The notes under the pieces: model-generated | The model's input: only the letters and a program-made list of their open reading frames with translations | The model's database searches: none | What the model was told of the DNA's origin: nothing | Shown here: piece after piece, positions 5,977-62,985 of the stretch | Layout: every line of letters starts with the position of its first letter | How positions within the stretch are numbered: position 1 is the stretch's first letter | DNA from: Candidatus Daviesbacteria bacterium | GTDB lineage: Bacteria; Patescibacteriota; Microgenomatia; Daviesbacterales; UBA10151 | Reading direction: 5' to 3' | NCBI GenBank assembly: GCA_016176465.1 | Contig: JACOXD010000011.1 | Coordinates: forward strand, 12,318 to 76,317 | Length of the DNA stretch: 64,000 nt | Translations under genes and position numbers: made by a program

Positions 5977-6699
5977 TCAGTTAATGGTCGTATACTGAAC
6001 ACCTGTGGGCAAATAATCCTTATAAAATGGGTTGTCCAAGATATATTTTATGCTTGATTTACCCATTCCAAACTTATCCCCAATAGCTTGCAAGGTTAGC
6101 TTCTCTTTTATTCTGAAGTTAAAGATTGCTTTTACCTTTTCAAACTCATTCTTATCAATGACCAAATCACTCTTTTGTGCCATATTACGCTTCTTTAACT
6201 TAAAGCCAAGCGGTAACATATCAGGTGATCCAAGTCTTCTACCCTGCCTTGTAAGTTCCTGTAGTGCATCAATTGTACGTTCTGCTATCAGATCCCGCTC
6301 CATCTGTGCCATAGCTCCCATGACTGTAAGAAAAAACTTACCAGAAGCAGAACTTGTATCTATATTCTCGTTTAGACTTATAAATTGAATATCATTTTTT
6401 GCAAAAACATCTTCAATAAGATAGAGGAGGTCCCGAGTTTTACGGGTTAATCGGTCTAATTTGTAGCAAATAACACCATCTATTTTCTTTTCCTTGACTA
6501 AATTTATGATTTTTTGAAGTCCTGGTCTATTCATGGTCTTACCAGATTTACCCTCCTCAATAATCATTTCCACTAAATCCATGTCCTTTAAATCCGCATA
6601 AGCCATAATTTTATGCTCCTGATTATCTAAGCTAACACCATCACGGCTCTGCTCAAGAGTTGATACCCTGGTATATCCAATTACTCTAAGCTTTTTCAT
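5977..6699 (-). CDS. Serine recombinase (resolvase/invertase type, N-terminal catalytic domain)
   Basis: VIGYTRVSTLEQ ... DGVICYKLDRLTR ... catalytic-Ser resolvase motifs. Confidence 0.85.
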   Translation of the reverse strand: MKKLRVIGYTRVSTLEQSRDGVSLDNQEHKIMAYADLKDMDLVEMIIEEGKSGKTMNRPGLQKIINLVKEKKIDGVICYKLDRLTRKTRDLLYLIEDVFAKNDIQFISLNENIDTSSASGKFFLTVMGAMAQMERDLIAERTIDALQELTRQGRRLGSPDMLPLGFKLKKRNMAQKSDLVIDKNEFEKVKAIFNFRIKEKLTLQAIGDKFGMGKSSIKYILDNPFYKDYLPTGVQYTTIN

Positions 6700-7241
6700 T
6701 TTTCTTCCTCATCAACAATTTTTATCCTTCTGTATCCCTTAATTGGTTTGCCATATGCGTAATGCGTTGGTGAACCTAAGATAGATTGCGGACGTCCTTT
6801 GTATTCTGGTTGATCTAATTTCTTAGTGAAATGTTTAACATCCGCTGTGAGTTTTCTGATGTCCTCGTTACAGGTATATAGATTTATTGCTTGGTGTAAG
6901 AAAACCGCCATAGAACCGCCAGGTTGGGCAGTTAATACTGGAGATAGCTTTTCAATAGCCTCATTAAACTGTTGTACTAATTTCGATCTTTCTTCTGATT
7001 TATCCGGTAAAGGAAGTCCAGCATATACTAATAACTCGGTACCATTTATCCTGTACCATTTACCTCCAAATTTATTAGCCTGTAACCTTCCTGATTTGAT
7101 AGCTCGATGAATAGTGGCTACTGAAACATGAAGCAATTCAGCTGCTTCCTCTGCTGTATAGGTCGTGAAATGTAATATTGGATCGCTCATAATGTTTAAG
7201 TCTACATCAACGATGATGTATTTGTCAATATTAAGATTCAT
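6696..7241 (-). CDS. Excisionase-family HTH DNA-binding protein (Xis/MerR-like) with C-terminal extension
   Basis: TAEEAAELLHVSVATIHRAIKSGRLQANKFGGKWYRING; 4-bp overlap with recombinase start. Confidence 0.55.
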   Translation of the reverse strand: MNLNIDKYIIVDVDLNIMSDPILHFTTYTAEEAAELLHVSVATIHRAIKSGRLQANKFGGKWYRINGTELLVYAGLPLPDKSEERSKLVQQFNEAIEKLSPVLTAQPGGSMAVFLHQAINLYTCNEDIRKLTADVKHFTKKLDQPEYKGRPQSILGSPTHYAYGKPIKGYRRIKIVDEEEK

Positions 7242-7286
7242 AATTAGATCATTTGCATGTGCTCTTGATAATCTTGAAAGGGGTAA

Positions 7287-7832
7287 CTAGTCTAATGAAA
7301 GGTTAATGGTCTTAACTTTCTCGATAGCCACCTTAAAGGCAGTGATACCATCGACTAAATCGGCATAGGCTCTATGTAATTGCCTAAAAGATACATACTT
7401 ACCAAGGCTATTCCAAGAAGGATGTGCAAAATCATTCCTTATATCATTTACTCTTGTCATTAATCTAAATAAGTCAACATCGAATTCGTATGTTTCATTA
7501 AGCTTTCTAAAAACCTCTAAGCGGCGAGCAAAACCTAATCTTTCTATAAAATTATCATAAAGAAACCTTGCTCTAGCTAATTGCGGTCCAGTTAGAGGTT
7601 TATCCCGAATTAAAATCCCTTTTGGATAAAAGTAATGTAGGATTGTAGTCGTCATCCCATCATCCATTTCAGCGTGAACAAAAATGGCCCAGTGCCTCAG
7701 CTCTTTTAAATCTTCTTTGGTTATATCTCCAAATGGTGGAGTCCTTCGATCAAAAACAGTTTCTAATCCCTCTAATATTTGTTTAAGAGTTGTAATCTGT
7801 TGCTTGTAGTTATTCACCCAGAAATTATACAA
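7287..7832 (-). CDS. Hypothetical protein
   Basis: 181 aa ORF, no recognised motif. Confidence 0.3.
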   Translation of the reverse strand: MYNFWVNNYKQQITTLKQILEGLETVFDRRTPPFGDITKEDLKELRHWAIFVHAEMDDGMTTTILHYFYPKGILIRDKPLTGPQLARARFLYDNFIERLGFARRLEVFRKLNETYEFDVDLFRLMTRVNDIRNDFAHPSWNSLGKYVSFRQLHRAYADLVDGITAFKVAIEKVKTINLSLD

Positions 7833-8089
7833 TAGAAGAACATATACTACCGTATGAACTCAAAGAGATCTGTAAATTTGTAGTTCCTGAAATGACAGGT
7901 TTGGTATTAGGGCCAGACTAACGTCTACCAGGTGGACACCAGAGCCCTAATTAAACCGCAAAAGTAGCTATTTTTAAATGATTCTTAAGTTGAGATAATT
8001 GAGCAAATAGTAATTGTGTTTCACTTGAGTTACTATCTAACAGTTGCGTTATAGGTTCGAGTACAGAACCGACTCCCGCTCCAAGATGG

Positions 8090-8860
8090 AACACCTTCGA
8101 GGTGGTCTAGGCAGGCACCTCTTCTCTATTCTAAAACCAAGTGCTTGATCTTATCTAATTCTCTAGCATAGCTTACTTGATCCAAAACAAATTTTTTATA
8201 TTCATTTATAGATTTAAAAAAACCTAAAACCTCCTCAGAGCTTGTAATCTTCTCTGCTTTTGGTACCAAATACTCAAAGTAAGAAGACCATTGGTAGTTT
8301 TCCAAATCCTCCGTCTTAATTAAGTAGGAAGTTACTGGGTTTAGATGAATATATCTTGATAGATGAATAAACTGTTCATCAGAATCAACAAACACTGCCT
8401 TGAATAACCCCTGAAGAAGTGGACCCACTCTTTTATTTTTGGTGTTAAAGTATTTGGTATAAGAGTTAGAAAAGTTAGATATAAATTTAGATATACCATT
8501 TTCTTTCTTCTGCTTTAGTAGGAAGTGAAAATGGTTGGGCATTAAACAAAAAGCAATAATTTCTACTAATACATTCTCATCATCTAAGTTTTTCCATAAT
8601 TCATCTTTTTTGTCATTTGCGAGATCTAAAAACTTGGAAAATTTCAAAGGCAGACTTCCGTAGCGGTAAAACTTTAAAGTTTCTAAAGCTCTTGAATATT
8701 CCCTGCTTTTGGTAAAAATTGGACGCTTCTCTACACCTCGATTAAAAACATGATAGATGATCTGCTCATTTGCAAAAACAAACTTTCTATTTGTGGGCAT
8801 CTATTTAAAGTATGGACTAAAAAAGGACAGGTGTCAACCCAGACCACCTTTCAGGTGGTT
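8090..8860 (-). mobile_element. IS200/IS605-like element (HUH Y1 transposase flanked by CACCT-N3-AGGTG hairpins; TTGACA in left end)
   Basis: Hairpins at 8092-8104 (caccttcgaggtg) and 8844-8858 (ccacctttcaggtgg) flank tnpA-like ORF; same motif flanks second copy at 42.5 kb. Confidence 0.6.
8126..8800 (-). CDS. tnpA: IS200-like / REP-associated tyrosine (HUH, Y1) transposase
   Basis: HuH motif LMPNHFHFLL and catalytic Tyr in SRYIHLNPV; ~70% identical paralog at 42589-43233. Confidence 0.75.
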   Translation of the reverse strand: MPTNRKFVFANEQIIYHVFNRGVEKRPIFTKSREYSRALETLKFYRYGSLPLKFSKFLDLANDKKDELWKNLDDENVLVEIIAFCLMPNHFHFLLKQKKENGISKFISNFSNSYTKYFNTKNKRVGPLLQGLFKAVFVDSDEQFIHLSRYIHLNPVTSYLIKTEDLENYQWSSYFEYLVPKAEKITSSEEVLGFFKSINEYKKFVLDQVSYARELDKIKHLVLE

Positions 8861-8906
8861 CTTTGCTCTTTGCTATGTGATTATCGAGGTCTGCTAAGCT
8901 CTTAAT

Positions 8907-17239: not shown

Positions 17240-17297
17240 CTACAAAAAAATTAGTTGGGAAAACTATTACTGTTTGGTTTAGATATGCCTTCACTTT

Positions 17298-17327
17298 AGC
17301 TTTCAACCCCCGGGGTTTCCACATAAA
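17298..17327. repeat. 30-bp GC-core repeat, left copy of inverted pair (partner 23384-23413)
   Basis: agctttcaacccccggggtttccacataaa is the reverse complement of the 23384-23413 copy except for a one-base shift in the C/G core. Confidence 0.6.
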
Positions 17328-17907: not shown

Positions 17908-19278
17908 TTAGAGCTTAAATCTTCTGTCTGCTAAAAAAGGATTTGCTTTCCTATAAACTTTAACTGAGTTAAGTAAAACCCCTCTTTGCAAAGTAAACTC
18001 TCCAAACTTATCATTAATTTTATCTAAAGCTTTAGTTATAACTTCTTTTACTTTTACTTCTGGAAGAAGATTTAAGTTTTCAGGAGTTGTTGGTTTTAAA
18101 TTAGAAATAGAAATACCTATCATTCTTATAGCTTTCTCATCCCAAAGGCTCATGAATATCCCCCACCCTGTTTTAAATATTTCCAAACCGTCACTAGTAA
18201 AAGAAACTGTGCTTTGCGCTCCATCTCCTAAGAATCCAATCCCGGTTTGGAATTGAGGCGACAAACCGGGATTGTAGGTTTGTTTAAATGCATATCTAAA
18301 CCAAAGGGAAACAGTTTTACCTACTAGTTTTTTGGCTCGCATTCTTCTTGCAACTAATTCTGAAAGCTTAAGCAAGATTTGTTTAATTTCTTCATAAGAG
18401 TCTGCGTCATGATCTATTGTGTGTCTATGACCAATTGATTTTACTTCTTCTTTCTCATAAAAAGGGCTGACAGGAGAATCATCCAATCCCCTGCTCATGT
18501 TATATAAAGTTTGTCCATAACTTTTAAAAGAGGCTAATAAATACTCCAAGTTTACTCTTCTTAAATCAGAAAAATTAAAAATCCCCATATTATTTAACCT
18601 CCTTTTAATCCTAAACCCTATCCCACAAACCTCATTTAGCTCAATTTGGTCTAAAATTCTCATTGCTGCCTGCTCATCTGCTATTACCAGCAACCCATCG
18701 GGTTTGTATAAAGACCCAGCTAATTTAGCTAAAAATTTGTTATAAGAAATCCCAATAGAACATGTAATCCACTCCCCAATCTTAGCTCTTATTTGGGATT
18801 TAATATCTATAGCCATTTCAATAACGTCATTCCCGACCCGCTTCGCCGGAGCGAGAGCGAGGCGAGCCTGATCGGGAATCTGAATAGATCTCCCAATCGA
18901 GTTGGAAGATGACATTTTTAATTTGGGTGATGACTTCTTGGGCTGAGGCAGTTCTATAAATGCCTCATCGATAGAGAAAAGCTCTATATAGGGGGAATAG
19001 CTTTTTAGAATATTTAAAAATTTTTTAGTAGTAGATAAGTATTTATCAGAATCCCCTTTTACTAAAATTAATTGTGGACAAAGTTTTCTAGCTTCATATA
19101 AATTCATCCCAGTTTTTACCCCAAACTTTTTAGCCTCCACTGATGCAGCACCAACTACAGTCCTCTTCATTCTATCTCCACCAGTTACCCCAATAGGTTT
19201 ACCTCTAAGTCTTGGGTTAGCTTGCTGTTCAACCCTGGCAAAGTAGCTATTAAAATCTATATGTAATATTGTTCTCAT
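17908..19278 (-). CDS. dinB: DNA polymerase IV (Y-family, DinB) carrying two in-frame palindromic insertions
   Basis: ILHIDFNSYFARVEQ, SIDEAFIEL, YNKFLAKLAG; insertions at 18237-18274 and 18829-18879. Confidence 0.8.
   Translation of the reverse strand: MRTILHIDFNSYFARVEQQANPRLRGKPIGVTGGDRMKRTVVGAASVEAKKFGVKTGMNLYEARKLCPQLILVKGDSDKYLSTTKKFLNILKSYSPYIELFSIDEAFIELPQPKKSSPKLKMSSSNSIGRSIQIPDQARLALAPAKRVGNDVIEMAIDIKSQIRAKIGEWITCSIGISYNKFLAKLAGSLYKPDGLLVIADEQAAMRILDQIELNEVCGIGFRIKRRLNNMGIFNFSDLRRVNLEYLLASFKSYGQTLYNMSRGLDDSPVSPFYEKEEVKSIGHRHTIDHDADSYEEIKQILLKLSELVARRMRAKKLVGKTVSLWFRYAFKQTYNPGLSPQFQTGIGFLGDGAQSTVSFTSDGLEIFKTGWGIFMSLWDEKAIRMIGISISNLKPTTPENLNLLPEVKVKEVITKALDKINDKFGEFTLQRGVLLNSVKVYRKANPFLADRRFKL
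18237..18274. repeat. RPE-like palindromic element (perfect 13-bp stem CAATCCCGGTTTG/CAAACCGGGATTG) in frame within dinB
   Basis: Encodes YNPGLSPQFQTGIG; near-identical copies in uvrB and uvrC. Confidence 0.7.
18829..18879. repeat. GC-rich palindromic in-frame insertion in dinB (ATTCCCGA-35 nt-TCGGGAAT)
   Basis: ~70% GC segment in AT-rich gene; encodes extra loop IPDQARLALAPAKRVGNDV absent from canonical DinB. Confidence 0.5.
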
Positions 19279-22302: not shown

Positions 22303-22337
22303 CAAAAGAAGTAAAAAGTTGAAGGTGTGAACGTAGT

Positions 22338-22823
22338 TCACCCTGAGGGTGGAAATACATTTGCATTTATCTTTAGCGCTTCAATATCACGTTGCTTAGC
22401 GTTAATTACCCGCTCACCAACAATTATATCTTGCTGGGTTTTAGAGGCAAATAGAAGTTTTAAGGTTTCATCAAACCGAATCCAGACAGGGATATAGTCT
22501 TTTAAAGGAGAAAAGTTTAGCGCTTTGCCAACCTCAGCGTAGAATACATAGTTAATTTTATCTAATCCTTCATGGAAATAGTCATAAATTGGCAAAATAC
22601 GCTTTATTTTAAGATCTATTTTTAGAAATTCAAGCACTACTCTTTGAAATGTAATCATTGCATCTTCTCCTTCCCTACCTTCTCCTCCCAACATAGACCA
22701 TGCTGGACTAGAGTCATCTGTTGGTTGGGACTGAAGCAAGAGAATTTGCCCGGTCTTTTGGTTGTAAAGGAATCCGCTTGCATAAAAGGGTTTATGCATG
22801 GGAGTAGTATAACACAATTGCAT
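22338..22823 (-). CDS. Possible divergent NUDIX hydrolase
   Basis: GGEGREGEDAMITFQRVVLEFL weakly matches Nudix box. Confidence 0.3.
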   Translation of the reverse strand: MQLCYTTPMHKPFYASGFLYNQKTGQILLLQSQPTDDSSPAWSMLGGEGREGEDAMITFQRVVLEFLKIDLKIKRILPIYDYFHEGLDKINYVFYAEVGKALNFSPLKDYIPVWIRFDETLKLLFASKTQQDIIVGERVINAKQRDIEALKINANVFPPSG

Positions 22824-23383: not shown

Positions 23384-23413
23384 TTTATGTGGAAACCCCC
23401 GGGGTTGAAAGCT
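23384..23413. repeat. 30-bp GC-core repeat, right copy of inverted pair (partner 17298-17327)
   Basis: tttatgtggaaacccccggggttgaaagct. Confidence 0.6.
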
Positions 23414-23481
23414 AATATGTTAAGAGATTATACAGCCCTATAGTTTGATTAATATCCTCAAATACCTTATAATTATAAATC

Positions 23482-24797: not shown

Positions 24798-24976
24798 GCA
24801 CCCTTAAGTGACGCCCCAGCTCTTGATGTGTCTAGTCTTCGACCCTGAGGACTTCGACGGTGAGCTCAGTCGAACCGCTCAGACCGAAGGGCTAACCCAC
24901 ACCGGGTGTGGGGTGTGTAGGAATTGTTAAATTACCTACTTGCATAAATAAAAAATATCCTGGTATACTCGGCTAT

Positions 24977-25675
24977 ATGTTTTGGAAAATTTTATTTTTC
25001 CTTCTTATAGTAATTGTTAGCCCTCCTTCTTTAGTATTTGCCTCCCACAATAATCAACTCCAAACTAATATTGATATAGATATAAGAAATCGCTCTAGGG
25101 TAACTGAAAGTATTAAAATAACAATTTCTAACCCTAATGTTTTTGAGGTAACTAAAGTTAACCCAAGCAAGGCTGATTTTTTACAAGATGTATCTTTAAC
25201 AGGAAGCAATTTTGGAAGTACTCCTGGTTTTGTTAATTTTTATAATAGAAATAGCAGTCTTGTAGCTGGAGCAGTAATTAGTAATTGGACAAATTCAGAG
25301 GCAAAGTTTAAGGTTCCAGCCATTTTAGGTCACTCCAGATATTATTTAGAACTTCAAAAATCAGATGGGACTAGAAGTAACAAAATTAAGTTTTATGTTG
25401 ACGATGGCCAGCCAAAAATAAATTTATTGGAATCAAGTAACGCTAGAGTTGGAGAATTATTAACAATTAGGGGTGAGGAGTTAGGGAGAAGAGGAAAGGT
25501 AATCTTTTCCCAAAATGGGGTTAATGTTGCTGAGGGAGCAGTTAGGTCATGGACATCTTCCAGGATAAGAGTATACGTACCAGCTGGATTAAACTCAGGG
25601 CAAGAATATGGAATTCAAATTATTACCAATGATAACCGCCCCACCTCCTTGGTCTTTTATATCTTAGGGTTTTAG
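24977..25675 (+). CDS. Secreted protein with Ig/TIG-like repeats, hypothetical
   Basis: Signal peptide MFWKILFFLLIVIVSPPSLVFA; start moved from 24908. Confidence 0.35.
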   Translation: MFWKILFFLLIVIVSPPSLVFASHNNQLQTNIDIDIRNRSRVTESIKITISNPNVFEVTKVNPSKADFLQDVSLTGSNFGSTPGFVNFYNRNSSLVAGAVISNWTNSEAKFKVPAILGHSRYYLELQKSDGTRSNKIKFYVDDGQPKINLLESSNARVGELLTIRGEELGRRGKVIFSQNGVNVAEGAVRSWTSSRIRVYVPAGLNSGQEYGIQIITNDNRPTSLVFYILGF

Positions 25676-31468: not shown

Positions 31469-31617
31469 TGTGTAATTCTGGCTTTTAATTTCTAATACAT
31501 TATATCCACTTAGAATAATCCCTAGGTGTCGGCACATTCCACCTCCCAGGTGATTGTTCTTGTTTATGCAGGTGATTGTTCTTGTTTATGTAAATTAAGT
31601 AAGAGTTTAGCAAGGAA

Positions 31618-36064: not shown

Positions 36065-36256
36065 CCCCGCAATATTTTGTTTGCAAAAAGGCATCTTGGG
36101 AGTATTTATGGCAATTTATGCGCTTGTATCCTTATGGAATGAAGACTTAAAAGTAAAGCGTCTGTCTCCAATTCAATTGTTGGAGGAGGACTGTCAGGTT
36201 TCCTAAATGATCAGAAAAGAAAATTATCTTGCACACACCAGGTGTGTGATTGAATT

Positions 36257-39305: not shown

Positions 39306-40619
39306 TTATATACCTACTCTGCTAAACATTTTTTTACTTCTTAACTTAAGGTGATAGTTAAGTGCAAAACGGTGGGATTCATCTCTGATTTTTTGCAATA
39401 AACGAAGAGACATTCTTCTTTTAGGGATCTTTACAATTTCTCCCTCAATTGGATATAACCTCTCCATTTTTTTTGCCAATCCAAATATAGGAATACTTAC
39501 TTCTCGTTTCTCTAAGATAGCGGCCACCCCTCTAACCTGACCTCTCCCTCCATCGATTATAATTAAATCTGGAAAGGGCCACTCAGGATGATTTAGTCTC
39601 CTCCTCATCATCTCAGATAGCATTGCTACATCATTAGGTTTTCCAGTAATTTTTATTTTAAACTTTCGATACTGCGATTTATCTATTTCTCCATTTGCTA
39701 AAACTACAAGTGATCCTGAAGCTTCCCCCCCTTGAATATTAGAAATATCATAACCTTCAATCCTCTTAGGCAAATTAGGCAATTTCAAATCCGTCATTAG
39801 CTGCTTTAATCCCAACTTATTTTGGTCTTCCAAAAAATTAGGATTATCTAAATACATTGAAATCTCAGTTGGTTGGGTAATATATTCAATCCCAGAAATT
39901 GTTTTCTTTAAAGTTTCTGCCTTTTCAAATTGCAAGTTTTTTGCAAGATCTTTCATTTCAACTTGCAACTCACTTAACAAAACTTCTTTTTCTCCACCTA
40001 TAAATTTAATAAAGCGGTTAATAATTTTTCGGTACTCTTTTGCATCTATCAAACCTATACAGGCTCCGGGACAAAGTCTTAGATGATAGTAAAAACATGG
40101 TCTAGCTTTCCAATCCCGGATTGGATTTGAATTGACAATCCGGGATTGGATGGTTATTTTCGATGGATTAGAACACCAAGGGAAGACTCTCCTTATTTTT
40201 TTTAAAGTTTGATTAACAGTACGGGATGAAGGAAAAGGACCAAAATATTTCAATGCATCGCTTAGTTCCTGCTTTCTGGAAGTTATTATCCTTGGGAACT
40301 TTTCCTTAGTGACTTTAATATAAAGATAATCTTTATTATCAGTTAAGCGGACGTTAAAGGTGGGCAAATTTTTTTTAATTAAATTGGCTTCCAAAATAAG
40401 TGCTTCTAATTCCGATTCCACCACAAAAAAAACAATGTCGGCAATACTTTCTACTAATTGGGCTGTTTTTAAAGATGATCTATCTCTAAAATAGGAGGCA
40501 ACCCTGGACTTTAAATCTACTGCTTTGCCCACATATAAAATGTCACCTTTTAAATCTTTAAATATGTAAACGCCACTTTTGTGAGGAATATCCTCTTTCG
40601 ATAAATTCTTGGGAATCAT
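39306..40619 (-). CDS. uvrC: Excinuclease ABC subunit C (short form lacking C-terminal HhH2) with in-frame palindromic insertion
   Basis: GIY-YIG SGVYIFKDLKGDILYVGKA, UVR domain, RDESHRFAL; 437 aa. Confidence 0.8.
   Translation of the reverse strand: MIPKNLSKEDIPHKSGVYIFKDLKGDILYVGKAVDLKSRVASYFRDRSSLKTAQLVESIADIVFFVVESELEALILEANLIKKNLPTFNVRLTDNKDYLYIKVTKEKFPRIITSRKQELSDALKYFGPFPSSRTVNQTLKKIRRVFPWCSNPSKITIQSRIVNSNPIRDWKARPCFYYHLRLCPGACIGLIDAKEYRKIINRFIKFIGGEKEVLLSELQVEMKDLAKNLQFEKAETLKKTISGIEYITQPTEISMYLDNPNFLEDQNKLGLKQLMTDLKLPNLPKRIEGYDISNIQGGEASGSLVVLANGEIDKSQYRKFKIKITGKPNDVAMLSEMMRRRLNHPEWPFPDLIIIDGGRGQVRGVAAILEKREVSIPIFGLAKKMERLYPIEGEIVKIPKRRMSLRLLQKIRDESHRFALNYHLKLRSKKMFSRVGI
40110..40149. 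repeat. RPE-like palindromic element (15-bp stem CCAATCCCGGATTGG/CCAATCCGGGATTGG) in frame within uvrC
   Basis: Encodes IQSRIVNSNPIRDW; read in a different frame from the dinB/uvrB copies. Confidence 0.7.
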
Positions 40620-42534: not shown

Positions 42535-43265
42535 TAGCTTGACACTAGCTTGACACCTGAAAGGTGTACGCATAAACTTTACTAGTATATGCCTGGTAGA
42601 CTTGTACCCCTAGTTAATGGAGAGTTTTATCATATTTATAATCGTGGTAGTGATAAGCGCAATATTTTTTTGCAAAATAGAGATTACATCAGATTTCAAA
42701 AAACTTTTTATTATTACCAATTTTTAGGTCCGAAGGTAAGATTTTCTAAATTTGCTAAATCTACCTTAAACCTCTTTAATCCAACACTAAATGAAAAATT
42801 AGTAGAAATTCTCTGCTTTTGTTTAATGCCTAATCATTTCCACCTACTTTTGGTTCAACAAAAAGAAAACGGCATTTCTTCCTTTATTAGTCAACTTGCT
42901 AATAGCTACACCAAGTACTTTAATACGAAATATTCTAGGGTAGGTGCATTATTTCAAGGAGTTTTTAAGTCTGTGCGGATTTCATCAGATGAGCAGCTAA
43001 TTCATATATCACGCTACATACATATTAACCCAATAGTATCTGGTTTAACAAAGAACCTCAAAAACTATAAGTGGTCATCATATTCTGAATACTTACGAAA
43101 TAGAGAAACTTTTTGCCAGATCAGCACTATTTTAAATCTTTTCCCTTCTTCCAAAAAATACTCTGAGTTTATTGAAAATCAAATTAGCTATGGAACCACT
43201 CTCGAAATGATTAAACATCAAAAAATTGATTAATTAAATTCGTGCGGACACCTGAAAGGTGCAAA
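42535..43265 (+). mobile_element. IS200/IS605-like element, second copy
   Basis: LE tagcttgaca-tagcttgacacctgaaaggtgtac (42535-42568) with TTGACA/TAAACT promoter; RE hairpin cacctgaaaggtg 43249-43261. Confidence 0.6.
42589..43233 (+). CDS. tnpA: IS200-like / REP-associated tyrosine (HUH, Y1) transposase
   Basis: LMPNHFHLLL and SRYIHINPI; paralog of 8126-8800. Confidence 0.75.
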   Translation: MPGRLVPLVNGEFYHIYNRGSDKRNIFLQNRDYIRFQKTFYYYQFLGPKVRFSKFAKSTLNLFNPTLNEKLVEILCFCLMPNHFHLLLVQQKENGISSFISQLANSYTKYFNTKYSRVGALFQGVFKSVRISSDEQLIHISRYIHINPIVSGLTKNLKNYKWSSYSEYLRNRETFCQISTILNLFPSSKKYSEFIENQISYGTTLEMIKHQKID

Positions 43266-43266
43266 G

Positions 43267-46170
43267 TTAAATAACTTTTGCTAAATATTGACCTGTGTAA
43301 GAGGATTTATTCTTTGCAATGTCTTTTGGAGTACCTTCTGCTATTACTTTTCCACCTAAATCTCCACCTTCAGGTCCTAAATCTATTACCCAGTCTGCGT
43401 TTTTAATTACATCTAAGTTGTGTTCAATAATCAAAACAGTATTTCCCAGGTTAACTAACTTTGTCAAAATTGTCAGTAACCTTTCTATATCTGCAAAGTG
43501 CAAACCAGTTGTAGGCTCATCCAGAATATACAAAGTAAGTCCTGTTTGTCTTTTGGATAATTCCGTTGCTAGTTTTATTCTTTGGGCTTCTCCACCTGAT
43601 AAAGTTGGCGCAGGTTGACCCAAGTGAATATAACCTAATCCTACCTCATTTAAAACTTGTAATTTATTTTTAGCTTGTGGGATATTGGCAAAAAATTCCA
43701 GTGCCTCCTCAACTGTCATATCTAGCACATCAGCAATATTTTTATCCTTAAAGTGAATTTCCAAAGCTTCTCTGTTATAACGTTTCCCATTACATGCCTC
43801 ACAAGTTACATAAATATCAGGCAAAAATTGCATCTCTATTTTAATTTGTCCTTCTCCCTCGCAAACTTCACACCTACCTCCTTTTACATTAAAAGAAAAC
43901 CTACCTGGCTTATATCCTTTAATTTTTGCCTCAGGGGAGGTTGCAAATAACTCTCTAATAAAAGTAAAAAGTCCTGTATAAGTTGCTGGATTAGATCTAG
44001 GCGTTCTGCCAATAGGTGATTGATCAACTAAAATTACTTTATCAATATTCTCATCCCCCTCCAATCTTTCAAATTTGCCCGGACGTTCTTTAGAGTGATA
44101 AAACTTAGAAGCTAGGGATTTAAACAAAATATCATGGATTAAAGTAGATTTACCCGATCCAGAAACCCCTGTTATAGCTATGAAATTACCCAAAGGGAAC
44201 TCTACATCAACATTTTTTAAGTTATGTTCCGAGGCTCCCAAAACTTTTAAAATGGTGGTATTTTCTTTAATTAATCCGTTAGTCTTGACTTCCACCTTTT
44301 TTCTACCTGCCAAATAAGCACCGGTCAAGCTCTGCTTATTTTTCATTAACTCCAAAGGAGTCCCAGTAGCAACAATTTTTCCGCCGTGTTCTCCAGCTCC
44401 CGGGCCGATTTCATAAAGAATGTCGGCGTTTTCCATTGTTTCACTATCATGCTCACTAACAATAACTGTATTTCCCAAGTCTCTTAACTTTTTTAGGGTT
44501 GTAATTAATCTTCTATTATCTCGCTGGTGCAATCCAATTGATGGTTCATCTAAAACATATAAAACCCCTGATAAACCTGAACCTATCTGGGAAGCAAGCC
44601 TAATTCTTTGTGCTTCTCCTCCTGCCAAAGTCATAGAAGAGCGATCTAGCGTTAAATAATTTAAACCAACGTCCATTAAAAACTGTAATCTTGATTCAAT
44701 CTCTTTAACTACAGGTTTAGCAATTGTTAATTCCCGTTCACTAAGCAATGGGGTTTTTAACTCCTTAACCCAATCCAAACCCTGAGCTATGGATTGAGAA
44801 GTAACTTCGGAAATGTTGGAATCATTAATAGTGATGGATAAAACTTCATCTTTTAACCTTGCGCCGTTACACTTGGGACAAATCTCCCGCAGCATGTATT
44901 TTTCAATTTCACCCTTAACATAATCAGACTCGGTTTCAGAGTAGCGCTCTTTTAAATAAGGCACGATCCCCTGGAAAGTTGAGTAAAAATGAGTCCATCG
45001 TCCTTGCCTATTTTTACCTTCAACTTTAAACTGCTTGTCTCCATCCCCAAATAATAATACTTTTCTGGCCTGCGCGGATAGCTGGCCAAGTCTGGTACTC
45101 AGATCAAAACCATACTCTGCCCCGACAGCTTCAATAAGCCTGGAAAACCAGGTTTCCGATCCAGCTAAACGCTGCCAGGGCAAAATGCCTCCTTCTCTAA
45201 TAGATAAAATAGGATTTAAGATTGCATCAGCATCTATTTCTAAAAGTGACCCAAGTCCCGCGCAAGTAGGACAAGCTCCATGAGGAGAGTTAAAAGAAAA
45301 AGTTCTTGGTTCTATTTCAGGCAAAGCAATGTTATCTACTGGACAAGCAAACCGCTCTGAATATAAATGATCCTCCATTTTTTTGGGGTTAGTAGGGAAT
45401 TCTAAAGAGGCATCCAAGACTTCCGAAACAATTAATGTTCCCTCCCCCAACTTTAGCGCTGTTTCAACTGATTGATTGAGTCTGGATTTAACTTGTGAAT
45501 CTTTAATAGATTTAGCGTCTAAACTCAATCTATCAACCAGCGCATCAATACTATGTTTATTAGTTTTAATTAACATTAAATCCTCTGATAAATCCCTAAT
45601 CTGCCTATCAATTCTGGCTCTTGAAAATCCTTTTTTCGCAAGATCATCTAAAAGAGAGCTATACTCCCCCTTTCTATCTTTAACAATAGGGGCTAAAATC
45701 ATTATCCTTTTTATCTTTCTATTTGATCCTTCGACTACGCTTTGGATAACGCTCTGTGTTATTTGCTCAACACTCATTCTGGATATTTCCCTGCCACAAA
45801 TAGGACAATGCGGGTGACCAACTCTGGCAAAAAGTAATCTTAAATAATCATAAACTTCTGTTGTAGTGCCTACTGTAGAGCGAGGATTGTGAGAGGCGCT
45901 CTTTTGGTCAATTGAAATAGCCGGAGATAACCCTTCTATATAATCTACATCTGGCTTATCCATTACTCCTAAAAACTGTCTAGCATAAGCACTCAAAGAT
46001 TCTACATATCTTCTTTGCCCTTCAGCATATAAGGTATCAAAAGCTAAGGAAGATTTCCCCGAACCAGAGATACCTGTAAAAACTACTAATTTATTTTTCG
46101 GTATAACTAAATCTATATTCTTAAGATTATGCTGCCTGGCTCCTTTTATAATAATTTTATCTGTTGACAA
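43267..46170 (-). CDS. uvrA: Excinuclease ABC subunit A
   Basis: Two ABC ATPase modules, [33 protein letters not shown], Zn-finger Cys; TTG start. Confidence 0.95.
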
Positions 46171-49115: not shown

Positions 49116-51134
49116 TTAACTGCTTAATTCTCTTATTTGATCCCTTAATCTTGCTGCTGTTTCAAAATCTAAAAGTGCTGCAGCATCTCTCATCTGTTTT
49201 TCTAATTCTTTAATAATTCTTCCTCTCTCTTTTAATGGTATATCTTCAACTGTTAATACATCCTTCCCTAATTTTTCCTCAACTTTTTCTATTAACCTTT
49301 CCCTTAATGCTTTTTCTATCGAGCGTGGTTTAATTTTATGTTTTTTATTAAATTCTATTTGATAATTCCTTCTTCTTGAAACCTCATCTATTGCTCCTTG
49401 TATTGATTTAGTAATGGTGTCTGCATACATGATTACTGCTCCATCAACGTGTCTGGCAGCACGACCCATTGTTTGGATTAAAGATGTTTTTGACCTTAAA
49501 AATCCTTCTTTATCTGCATCCAAAATAATAACCAAAGATACTTCAGGTAAATCTAACCCTTCCCTTAAAAGATTAATTCCTACAATTACATCAAATTCCC
49601 CTAATCTTAAACTTTGTAAAATATCAGAACGCTCTAAAGTAGCAATATCTGAGTGTAAATAATTGACTCTAATCCCCTTTTCTTTAAGGTAATCAGTTAA
49701 ATCCTCAGCCATCCTTTTAGTTAAAGTGGTTATTAAAACTCTCTCACCTTTACTTACCCTTTTTTCTACTTCCTTAATTACATCTTCAATTTGCCCCTCT
49801 GTTTTTCTAACAGATACTTGCGGATCAACAATACCTGTGGGTCTTACTAATTGCTGGGCTACATTGTTTGGGCTTCCAATCCCGGTTTGGAACTGAGTTG
49901 ACAAACCGGGATTGTAGCCTGCAAGTGAAAACTCATATTCATCAGGAGTAGCAGAAACATAGACAGCTTGATTAACCCTCCTCATAAACTCCTCAAACTT
50001 TAAGGGCCTATTATCTAGTGCGCTAGGCAACCTAAAACCAAATTCAACTAAAGTCTCCTTCCTGGAGCGATCGCCGTTATACATTCCTCTAATTTGAGGG
50101 ATGGTAATGTGGGATTCATCAATAATTATTAAATAATCTTTAGGAAAAAAATCTAAAAGAGTATAGGGTGGTTCACCTGGATCTCTACCATCAAAATATC
50201 TTGAGTAATTCTCAATCCCATTACAAAAACCAAACTCCTTTATCATCTCCAAATCATAATAAGTGCGCTGTTCTAACCTTTGAGACTCAAGTAATTTTCC
50301 TTGAGATTTTAAATCTTTCAATCTTAACCTTAAATCATCTTCAATTTGAAAAGTTGCTGGTTTAATTAATTGTTGAGGTGTTATATAGTGTTTTGCAGGA
50401 TACAAAGTTAAAGTTTCTAGAGTAGGAATTGACTTGCCAGTAAGAGGATCCAAATGGGAAACTCTTTCAATTTTATCTTCCAAAAACTCAATCCTTAATG
50501 CAAAGTCAGAGTAAGCTGGGAAGATATCTAAAGTGTCTCCTTTTAATCTATACGTTCCTCTTTCAAAGTCAAAATCATTTCGGACGTAAAACATTTTATT
50601 AAGCATCTTTAAGATAGATTCCATTCCTGATTTAACTCCATTTTTTAGTTGCAGTATTGCCCCTCCATATTCCTTCGGTGAACCTAAGTTATAAATACAA
50701 GAAACAGAGGCTACAACTACAACATCAGACCTAGTCATTAAAGAAGTAGTTGTTGAGAGTCGCAGTTTTTCAATCTCCTCGTTAATGGATGCATCTTTTT
50801 CAATATAGGTATCAGATGAAGGAACATAAGCCTCAGGCTGGTAATAATCATAGTAAGAAACAAAATACTCAACGGCATTTTCAGGAAATAAGGACTTAAA
50901 TTCTTGTGCCAATTGCCCGGCTAATGTTTTATTATGAGAGATAACTAGTGTTGGTCTATTTACAGCTTGGATGACATTAGCCACAGTAAAAGTTTTACCA
51001 GAACCTGTTACACCAAGCAAAACTTGATGTTTCTCATTATCCTTAATCCCCCTTACTAATTTCTCAATAGCTTGGGGCTGATCACCAGTAGGCTTAAAAT
51101 CTGAAATTATTTTAAACTTAGACATAAAGTTCAT
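49116..51134 (-). CDS. uvrB: Excinuclease ABC subunit B with in-frame palindromic insertion
   Basis: [10 protein letters not shown], helicase motifs, C-terminal UVR domain; insertion at 49877-49914. Confidence 0.95.
49877..49914. repeat. RPE-like palindromic element (perfect 13-bp stem, same arms as the dinB copy) in frame within uvrB
   Basis: caatcccggtttgg-aactgagttga-caaaccgggattg encodes [14 protein letters not shown]. Confidence 0.7.
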
Positions 51135-51187
51135 TATAGCACTTAAGCGAATATTCCCCGAATAGTAGATTTAAAGATTATGATAGA

Positions 51188-51221
51188 TTAGCTTGACACC
51201 TGAAAGGTGTACTCGTAAATT
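51188..51221 (+). promoter_or_regulatory. Solo IS200-like left-end/REP-like hairpin carrying outward TTGACA-17-TAAATT promoter
   Basis: tagcttgacacctgaaaggtgtac identical to LE of the 42.5 kb IS copy; no transposase adjacent. Confidence 0.4.
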
Positions 51222-51253
51222 CAGAACCAAATAATTGCTAAGTTTTACCTATA

Positions 51254-51640
51254 GTGCTAAAATCCTCTCTTAATATGGGCCTGGAAGCTTCAATTCACAG
51301 TTTATATGGAGAGTCTGGCGGGGAATTAGACTATCTAGCCTGTCTTACATTAAATCCCAATGATTTATATCTATTAACAAGTCAAATCGATTTAAGATTA
51401 CTTAAAAAGAGAAATCAAGACTTTAATCCGATTACTGTGATCCGACCTAGTATTGTAGTAACTGGCATAGGTGTAGATGGCATCAGACATTACAAAAGCG
51501 CCGTAATAGAAAGAAAAGAAGTGGTAATTCTAGATATTAAAGACTCTCGAACATATCTTTTTAGTGATCAATATGGTTTGTATTTAAAACCTAAAGAAGA
51601 GTTTCAAGTTTGTATGGGAGATAGATTTGAACTTTCCTAG
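51254..51640 (+). CDS. Hypothetical protein
   Basis: 128 aa ORF. Confidence 0.3.
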   Translation: MLKSSLNMGLEASIHSLYGESGGELDYLACLTLNPNDLYLLTSQIDLRLLKKRNQDFNPITVIRPSIVVTGIGVDGIRHYKSAVIERKEVVILDIKDSRTYLFSDQYGLYLKPKEEFQVCMGDRFELS

Positions 51641-62869: not shown

Positions 62870-62985
62870 TGTATCTCACCCCCTTTCATATGTAGGTAAT
62901 CTTTACATATGCCTTGTACCCAATGCCAAATGCATTATCCTCTAGTACACCCTCCGGGTGATTTAGCTTTACACCCTTTCTTGTG

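Follow-up and report, generated by a model that had tools for sequence, protein, structure and literature searches.

Putative class-2 Y1 HUH gene cassettes with hairpin ends in a Candidatus Daviesbacteria genome

What kind of element is a lone Y1 HUH gene that is framed by short palindromes and preceded by a promoter-like sequence? This question is raised by a 64,000-nucleotide stretch of contig JACOXD010000011.1 (hereafter the window), which derives from a Candidatus Daviesbacteria genome of the candidate phyla radiation (~34% G+C) and contains two such genes, termed A (8126–8800, minus strand) and B (42589–43233, plus strand). An initial annotation filed both under the IS200/IS605 insertion sequences. 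Here, the window was compared with the contexts of homologous genes and with 80 metagenomic loci, from which both flanks of each gene were extracted (loci of relatives are denoted by L-numbers); copy counts cover the 64-kb window and the ±10 kb around ~80 relatives. The analysis indicates that A and B are probably ~0.75-kb class-2 Y1 HUH cassettes of a RAYT/TIRYT-like kind, which fit subclass 2.1 and carry cognate hairpin modules of 13–17 nucleotides (nt) that co-evolve with the gene. The observations behind this reading are the catalytic motifs and fold of the proteins, the matching and covarying hairpins, the geometry of the promoter, the boundaries of the conserved block of A, and the synteny of B.

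Proteins and ends of cassettes A and B

Both open reading frames (ORFs) match Pfam Y1_Tnp (34 and 42 bits; cutoff 23) and encode proteins of 224 (A) and 214 (B) amino acids that are 50% identical to each other, in agreement with their annotation as paralogous Y1 HUH genes; the B protein matches, at 100% identity, an NCBI entry named "transposase [Candidatus Daviesbacteria bacterium]". In alignments with 14 and 54 relatives, the motifs N-H-F-H (N82-H-F-H85), (F/L)-Q-G (ending at G124), R-Y-I-H-x-N-P (Y143-I-H-L-N-P, with N147 and P148), and W-S-S (W162-S-S164) are invariant or nearly so, A reading NHFH, RYIHLNP, and WSS, and the class-2 motif Y---NP is present as an invariant Y143-I-H-x-N147-P148. 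In Table 1 of Quentin et al. (2018; PMC6006769), the IS200 transposases (subclass 1.1) are characterized by DH[VI]H and Y---Q and the class 2 TnpAY1 proteins by Y---NP; the same study gives for subclass 2.1 the consensus NH[YF]H, FQ, Y[IV]HLNP, and SS, a median length of 238 amino acids, and C-terminal extensions resembling a helix-turn-helix (HTH), and equates this subclass with RAYT group 1 of Bertels (PMC5581495) and with most TIRYT proteins (PMC3733652). By this published motif consensus, rather than by the hidden Markov models or the tree of these authors, A and B fit TnpAY1 subclass 2.1/RAYT group 1/TIRYT.

The top fold match in PDB of an AlphaFold model of B (predicted local distance difference test score 87) is 4ER8, the TnpA-REP protein with a REP hairpin (E value 1e-7, template modelling score 0.71), and the TnpA proteins of IS608 and ISDra2 rank behind it in Foldseek, with E values of ~1e-4. 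The ~50 C-terminal residues (H165–213) are predicted with high confidence to be helical and have no HTH match in Pfam. The sole NCBIfam match, REP_Tyr_transpos (NF047646), reaches 47.3 and 58.8 bits, under its 80-bit cutoff. The filing under IS200/IS605 is not supported, in view of the class-2 motifs NHFH and Y-I-H-L-N-P, the best fold match to 4ER8, and the lack of multiple near-identical copies in the window; judged by its motifs, the nearest described kind is the TIRtron/subclass-2.1 RAYT-like group. The family comprises 1,797 clusters (50% identity, E ≤ 1e-30), and its named members come from Daviesbacteria, Gottesmanbacteria, Microgenomates, and the "Patescibacteria group".

The hairpins around both Y1 genes in the window are built as CACCT-NNN-AGGTG. 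The 13-mer CACCTGAAAGGTG occurs exactly at 8845–8857 (minus strand) and at 42554–42566, 43249–43261, and 51197–51209 (plus strand), and the variant CACCTCGAAGGTG at 8092–8104 (minus strand). When up to two mismatches are allowed, six matches are found in the window against 1.1 expected, a number reached in 0 of 100 shuffles, and the 24-mer TAGCTTGACACCTGAAAGGTGTAC occurs twice against 0 expected. The exact 13-mer or the variant was found at both ends of each gene, as had been annotated, but the distance of ~35 bp given there is exceeded by the upstream hairpin of A, which lies 44 nt from the ATG. The description of the two loci as minimal cassettes, each a Y1 HUH gene bounded by hairpins, is supported.

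The whole conserved block of cassette A spans 8089–8861 (minus strand), as delimited by a blastn alignment with L037 4650–5436 (85% identity), and its neighbours differ on both sides. Its left end carries the hairpin ACCACCT-GAA-AGGTGGT (8843–8859, minus strand), whose GAA loop is found in 5/5 A-type orthologs; this hairpin is located 6 nt upstream of the TTGACA of a promoter-like TTGACA-17-CATACT (8837–8809, minus strand; 8 nt to the ATG), and TTGACACCT provides a third CACCT half-site that overlaps the −35 region. The right end (8092–8120, minus strand) is composed of an inner repeat AGGTGCC, 9 nt, and the hairpin CACCT-CGA-AGGTG, with the CGA loop in 5/5 orthologs. A-type ends are mirror images of each other, the left one reading hairpin, N6, TTGACACCT and the right one AGGTGNC, N8–9, hairpin; each end has three half-sites, and the inverted repeats consist of the hairpin together with the inner GACACCT or AGGTGNC.

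The left end of cassette B contains a perfect tandem duplication, TAGCTTGACAC twice (42535–42556, plus strand), and a −35 TTGACA and a −10 TAAACT separated by a 17-nt spacer (42550–42578, plus strand; 10 nt to the ATG), in which the hairpin ACACCT-GAA-AGGTGT (42553–42567) sits. The right end (43247–43272, plus strand), a hairpin CACCT-GAA-AGGTG followed by the tail CAAAGTTAAAT, is direct relative to the left end. In general, both B-type ends are direct copies of a 5-bp stem, a 3-nt loop, and a 5-bp stem followed by (N)RAAGCTAAAYT, and only the left end has a −35 TTGnnA that overlaps the 5′ stem; since the TAAAYT tail occurs at the right end too, the "−10" belongs to the shared end motif. The initial annotation had read the hairpin as the 17-nt spacer of a TTGACA promoter, which holds for B and for a solo copy of its left end (see below) but not for A; the −10 sites TAAACT, TAAATT, and CATACT, 17 nt from TTGACA, are all three present. 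The bases at the hairpin foot are TTGA, GCGGA, GAA, and TAGA, and none is GTAG or GTGG. The sequence GGGGWSAS is absent from the window and is only approximated in distant relatives.

Variation of the ends, the promoter, and the genomic position across the family

At 56 of 78 loci, an identical word of 11 nt or more recurs on both sides of the gene, compared with 10 of 600 pairs of flanks taken from different loci. These shared words are the hairpins, which differ from locus to locus, as exemplified by AACCTTAAAGGTT in L032 (71% ortholog), CACCTCGAAGGTG in L022, AACCTCGGGGGTT in L042, and CAATCCGGGATTG in L054, and even among syntenic B orthologs the hairpin differs between loci with both ends changing together. 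Across 19 aligned B-type modules, 93% of the cells pair, both sides change in 5/6 pairs, and 27 double-change cells were counted versus 9.7 ± 3.5 in shuffles (0/500); the pairing falls to 20–53% in slid controls. The folding energies of the hairpins as single-stranded DNA (−3.6 to −4.5 kcal/mol, z of −1 to −2) are too weak to be used, so that the case for hairpins rests on recurrence and covariation. When ends are oriented by the longer shared word, 34 of the 57 informative loci have direct and 20 inverted ends, and 3 are tied. L038 and L039 carry arrays of direct half-sites only, and the distant members L076, L116, L118, and L120 have palindromes of the GGGTCAG or GGGTTGA type. The ends are conserved farther than the hairpin itself and related modules occur elsewhere, so that the refutation named in the initial annotation, the absence of both, does not apply.

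An exact TTGACA precedes the gene in 30 of 81 loci, and 44 of them have a site that scores at least 9 of 12. In these 44 strong sites, the −10 ends 6–8 nt before the start codon in 33 (exactly 6 nt in 20), and the hairpin immediately precedes the −35 in 34 and lies within the spacer in 5; a Shine-Dalgarno-like motif was found in 4/81 loci. This geometry, with the −10 close to the ATG, predicts a leaderless or nearly leaderless mRNA. The suggestion that the left end joins a sigma-70-type promoter to a hairpin thus extends from the window to the family, and the hairpin-joined promoter is, as far as such sequence patterns indicate, a feature conserved in the family and not a chance occurrence at one locus. 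A Y1 protein that binds the hairpin would plausibly occupy the promoter of its own gene. In the upstream flanks of L069, L077, L078, and L082, the left hairpin is embedded in a longer imperfect palindrome (TTGTCAATAAGC-hairpin-TACTATTGCCAC) that gives both strands −35-like boxes and might act as a divergent promoter.

Other roles of the palindromes were considered and rejected. The pattern of an intrinsic terminator fits only the left hairpin of A on the plus strand, where no gene needs it, and the other hairpins are without T runs; an RNA-level role of the left hairpin is discounted because it lies upstream of or inside the promoter and is therefore outside the transcript of that promoter. 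An SOS box or LexA operator was considered because B lies among uvr genes and lexA lies by uvrB in L032, but the palindromes are locus-specific and frame Y1 genes in unrelated contexts, and the motif is absent upstream of uvrB in L032 and L022.

The two lineages differ in their genomic position. The order uvrC, transglutaminase-like gene, Y1, uvrA, uvrB is kept in L022, L031–L036, and L044, with occasional genes slipped in, and the identity of the Y1 protein to B (65% in L022, 71% in L031–L036, 50% in L044), which is 50–71% overall, is comparable to that of UvrA/UvrB (58–77%). The presence of B at one syntenic site across Daviesbacteria, down to 50% identity, indicates vertical inheritance and speaks against a recent insertion. 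A-type orthologs (L037, 87%; L124, 83%; L126, 77%; L125, 75%) are found in four contexts besides that of the window; in L037, the ortholog adjoins the same gene cluster (NosD, UDP-glucose dehydrogenase, and glycosyltransferase) from the other side. Nucleotide similarity between A and L037 is confined to 8089–8861 of the window, with the same boundaries in L124, L125, and L126, and the DNA conserved in the five contexts reaches from the 5′ foot of (C)CACCT-GAA-AGGTG to 2–4 nt past CACCT-CGA-AGGTG. Because the conserved block ends at the hairpins and the contexts differ, cassette A appears to have moved, and the fact that its hairpins and loops travel with the gene argues against duplicated target sites. 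An RrnaAD gene that had been guessed to be common to the contexts of A and L037 proved not to be homologous.

A serine recombinase gene (Resolvase domain), an HTH_17 excisionase-like gene, and a 181-amino-acid ORF without a Pfam match (5977–7832, minus strand) lie directly downstream of A. This region may be an integrative island, and the synteny with L037 breaks there.

Proposed mechanism and competing explanations

We infer single-stranded DNA binding, cleavage, and autoregulation by analogy with characterized relatives; the assignment of the cleavage positions and of an enzyme that moved the orphan modules is likewise tentative. E. coli TnpA-REP, which is encoded by a single-copy gene at a fixed locus, binds single-stranded REP and not double-stranded DNA (PMC3333891). 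By analogy with this protein and with IS608 TnpA, the enzyme would recognize its end hairpins when the DNA is single-stranded and would cut and rejoin beside them by means of the tyrosine of RYIHLNP and the metal site of NHFH. The sigma-70-type promoter of the left module would start transcription at or a few bases from the ATG. With the hairpin in the spacer (B type) or just upstream of the −35 (A type), a bound enzyme, or extrusion of the hairpin, would be expected to gate transcription of the gene, and the Y1 protein, on the analogy just drawn, would repress its own promoter. Lineage A appears to have changed place between related genomes as a hairpin-to-hairpin unit, and lineage B, which was already located between the transglutaminase-like gene and uvrA when these Daviesbacteria diverged and has stayed there, behaves like a REPtron-like resident. 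Single end modules would occasionally be left or copied elsewhere, as the solo copy at 51189, three right-end-like modules, two B-type orphans, and the D1 doublets (all described below) may illustrate.

Several points weigh against this reading. A palindrome would covary just as much if it were a symmetric binding site in double-stranded DNA, the stems are short (5–7 bp), and their folding energy is not distinct from that of shuffles; the sole hints of a true hairpin over a symmetric site are the conserved, end-specific loops and a few G-T pairs, such as those in the L042 hairpins at both ends. No REP-like structures were found next to subclass 2.1 genes by Quentin et al. (2018; PMC6006769), so that either the present clade differs or its placement by motifs is wrong. 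At the five A-type junctions, a number too small to be decisive, neither a target consensus, including the TTAC-like preference suggested at the outset, nor a target duplication was found, and no clean empty site for A was found, as the homology with L037 ends 38 nt ahead of the left hairpin and does not resume past the cassette. Moreover, the move of A relative to the NosD/UDP-glucose dehydrogenase/glycosyltransferase cluster could be a ride on a larger island, which is possible for the window copy because the serine recombinase and HTH_17 genes adjoin it.

The palindromes might instead be double-stranded operator or insulator sites that are bound by the C-terminal helices of the Y1 protein or by a host factor, with no cutting and no mobility. 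This explanation accommodates a palindrome that, in nearly all loci, adjoins or overlaps the −35 box, the three half-sites per end and the purely direct arrays of L038 and L039, the HTH-like extensions of subclass 2.1 proteins, and a covariation that cannot separate a hairpin from a symmetric site. It does not readily account for the matching module that most loci carry past the stop codon, a position in which an operator would serve no obvious purpose, or for the end-specific loops and the paired G-T of L042, and it is at odds with the changed context of cassette A with boundaries at the hairpins and with the preference of the characterized relative for single-stranded REP. The HUH motif and the tyrosine show no variation among 54 sequences and are kept at 50% identity, an argument for retained catalysis. 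On balance, operator sites alone are an unlikely explanation. Still less probable are classical IS200/IS605 elements, that is, autonomous and recently active elements whose TnpA uses subterminal hairpins of one strand that differ between the left and the right end and inserts 3′ of a constant tetranucleotide. The motifs NHFH and YIHLNP in place of DH[VI]H and Y---Q (PMC6006769, Table 1), the length of 214–224 versus ~150 amino acids, the best fold match to TnpA-REP, and the synteny of B across species disagree with such elements, even though they would explain the Y1 HUH fold, hairpins on the same strand in B and in 34/57 informative loci, the lack of terminal duplications, the two end-specific loops of A, and its occurrence in five contexts. 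Furthermore, the only two copies of the window are 50% identical and clusters at 90% identity are each found on 1–4 contigs, no conserved target sequence abuts the left end at the five A-type junctions, and the ends are inverted in 20/57 loci.

A further explanation, that the hairpins lie outside the element as pre-existing REP-like sites that were targeted and duplicated by insertion of the cassette, appears very improbable. REP-targeting insertion sequences are known, orphan modules do exist, and tandem duplications that break inside the hairpin loop are seen in 15/81 flanks versus 9/232 control windows; however, hairpins with GAA on the left and CGA on the right, together with the inner repeats, accompany A into five unrelated contexts, hardly any further copy of the locus-specific hairpin lies within ±10 kb, and the hairpins of syntenic B orthologs differ with both ends changing together.

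Compared with known systems, the cassettes, read as RAYT/TIRYT-like units with cognate hairpins, resemble the TIRtrons (Di Nocera et al., 2013, PMC3733652; subclass 2.1 in PMC6006769; RAYT group 1 in PMC5581495) in the motifs NH[YF]H, FQ for W[EQ], Y[IV]HLNP, and SS, in a protein that is longer than the core, with a C-terminal extension predicted to be helical in B, in low copy number with divergent paralogs in one genome and few or no dispersed copies, and in a gene framed by partly or wholly self-complementary repeats; the palindromes GGGTCAG and GGGTTGA of distant members are close to the published GGGGWSAS. In contrast to TIRtrons, the ends in the window are CACCT-type hairpins of 13–17 nt rather than GGGGWSAS repeats, and the ends of B and of 34/57 loci are direct, not inverted. 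The REPtron of E. coli (TnpA-REP, RAYT subclass 2.2; PMC3333891, 4ER8) provides the closest solved fold and has Y---NP in common with the present proteins; single-copy occurrence at a fixed locus and vertical inheritance are shared by B but not by A, and flanking cognate hairpins that evolve with the gene, as well as orphan, doublet, and in-frame copies, occur in both systems. It differs in that the hairpin foot of the window lacks GT[AG]G, neither the window nor the ±10 kb of ~80 relatives shows a swarm of identical REPs in the tens to hundreds, the window proteins are under the NCBIfam cutoff (47–59 versus 80 bits), and cassette A seems to be mobile as a unit, unlike REPtrons, which are believed not to be mobile in this way.

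Members of the IS200/IS605 family (IS608, ISDra2, IS200) are likewise minimal, with one Y1 HUH gene, subterminal hairpins, and no target duplication, and the B type shares with them the absence of terminal inverted repeats. IS200 carries regulatory hairpins at its left end. These elements differ from the present cassettes in the class of the catalytic motif (Y[IV]ENQ), in a core-only length of ~150 amino acids, and in a mean of 4.8 copies per genome at 99% identity, compared with two at 50% in the window; here, there is no tnpB, the five A-type junctions reveal no defined target tetranucleotide, and B has long been at one site. Searches with PADLOC and PHROGs gave no relevant match.

In the literature searched, whose coverage was incomplete, no description of such Y1 cassettes was found for candidate-phyla bacteria. 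Relative to that literature, the built-in promoter for a predicted leaderless mRNA, the three-half-site ends, the distribution in candidate phyla, the tightly covarying hairpin ends, the contrast between a fixed and a moving lineage, and the orphan and in-frame modules are new. Subclass 2.1/group 1 is the largest and least understood RAYT-like branch, for which published surveys report no hairpin partners; here, in a large candidate-phyla clade, nearly every gene is bounded on both sides by matching hairpins that covary and brings its own promoter, which is predicted to yield a leaderless mRNA. The cassettes give concrete single-stranded DNA substrates for biochemistry and offer a natural series of protein-hairpin specificity pairs, and the co-occurrence of a moving A and a long-fixed B in one genome bears on the domestication of transposases.

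Orphan end modules and doublets in repair genes

A gene-less copy of the B left end, ATTAGCTTGACACCTGAAAGGTGTACtcgTAAATT, is located at 51186–51221 (plus strand) between uvrB and the ORF 51275–51640; from 51189, it matches the B left end over 31 nt with 94% identity, and its hairpin fills the spacer of a promoter-like TTGACA-17-TAAATT (51193–51221, plus strand). This transposase-less third copy had been annotated correctly, but the ORF 51254–51640, at which its promoter was said to point, more likely starts at the ATG at 51275 and has its own, better-placed promoter-like site (TTGCTA-17-TAAAAT, 51235–51263). The sole known homolog of the ORF 51275–51640 is in L122 (72% identity), a second strain with the same intergenic region and the motif; no empty site for the solo copy was found, since this only homologous locus also carries the motif. 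In L032 (17962–18038), a relative with an AACCT-type hairpin, and likewise in L031 and L033, a divergent lexA stands beside uvrB, where the window has the orphan ORF 51275–51640.

Including the solo copy, which is the one exact copy of a hairpin, ~nine orphan end modules were found in the window, the other ~eight being heterologous and including the three D1 doublets described below. Three further ones resemble A-type right ends: one at 31524–31589 (plus strand) reads AGGTGTC, 8 nt, CCACCT-CCC-AGGTG and is followed by a perfect tandem duplication of AGGTGATTGTTCTTGTTTATG (twice), one at 22320–22352 (plus strand; AGGTGTGaacgtagtTCACCCTGAGGGTGG) lies 17 nt after tRNA-His, and one at 62948–62976 (minus strand; AGGGTGTaaagctaaatCACCCggaGGGTG) lies directly after tRNA-Lys. 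Two are of the B type, namely AACCCCGGGGGTT plus GAAAGCTAAAG at 17292–17323 (minus strand), 56 nt after tRNA-Arg, and AACCCCCGGGGTT plus GAAAGCTAATAT at 23388–23419 (plus strand), the two having a flank in common. The position of modules behind tRNA-His, tRNA-Lys, and tRNA-Arg may point to a preferred target or to a function at the 3′-ends of tRNAs; an Rfam scan of the window found five tRNAs and nothing else. A scan for three half-sites yielded 6 modules in the window versus ~1.3 in simulations, and a scan for three half-sites plus the tail in other loci yielded 8.7 matches per 100 kb versus ~2 simulated, most of which look unrelated; convincing orphans in other loci are present only in L038, L056, and L058.

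A REP-like expansion of the 24-bp end motif, as raised in the initial annotation, was not seen. Within ±10 kb of ~80 loci, further exact copies of the hairpin specific to the locus are almost entirely lacking, and the 17-mer TTGACACCTGAAAGGTG gave 18 single matches in unrelated taxa, approximately the number due to chance, among 185,579 reference genomes that do not include the source genome; these results give no sign of a REP-like swarm of the motif in the regions scanned.

Tandem duplications of at least 9 nt are present in 15/81 flanks on each side versus 9/232 control windows. At left ends, perfect duplications of the flank plus the 5′ stem up to the loop are seen in B (TAGCTTGACAC twice), L052, L053, L068, L071, and L073, and mirror-image duplications are seen at the right ends of L053 and L039 and in the window orphan at 31548–31589. 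These duplications have their breakpoints in the loop and may mark places where the DNA was cut or slipped at the apex of the hairpin.

A 54-nt repeat termed D1, each copy of which is a doublet of two inverted hairpin modules, occurs three times in the window, in frame within dinB (18221–18274, minus strand), uvrC (40095–40148, minus strand), and uvrB (49861–49914, minus strand). The uvrC copy has exactly the hairpins that flank the L054 Y1 gene, and as single-stranded DNA this copy has a folding energy of −16.8 kcal/mol (z −6.2). In UvrB, D1 adds ~16 amino acids after a conserved "SLA", with a diverged form in L022 and none in L032; UvrC follows the same pattern, and DinB of L037 has a shorter version. 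In-frame insertions of REPs are known for other RAYT classes. The confinement of D1 to repair genes is a post-hoc observation. D1 also draws attention to short palindromic insertions through which UvrB, UvrC, and DinB gain extra peptides, in genomes that are commonly described as repeat-poor. Y1 genes are also found beside or a few kb from dinB-like polymerase genes in L058 (6072–8033) and L037 (47–5382), which adds to the association with repair genes in the window.

A broader proposal, which we regard as speculative and rather unlikely in its full extent, is that candidate phyla carry their own REPtron-like system, in which subclass-2.1 Y1 nucleases, retained by their hosts over long periods and each with a co-evolving 13-nt hairpin "address", would supply end modules as portable promoters (51189), elements behind tRNA genes, and in-frame peptides in dinB, uvrC, and uvrB. 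If so, the location of B beside uvrA would point to a tie with single-stranded DNA processing in repair, and the loop-breaking tandem duplications would be footprints of ongoing enzyme activity.

Two other intergenic sequences of the window may be mentioned. A G+C-rich stretch at 24800–24915 (plus strand), which ends in an 8-bp palindrome (CCCACACCGGGTGTGGG) upstream of the ORF 24908–25675 and has no Rfam match, may be an unannotated RNA or another module. At 36232–36248 (plus strand), a palindrome with an 8-bp stem (CACACACCAGGTGTGTG) is located 9 nt before an ATG and has an ACACC/GGTGT flavour like that of the family hairpins.

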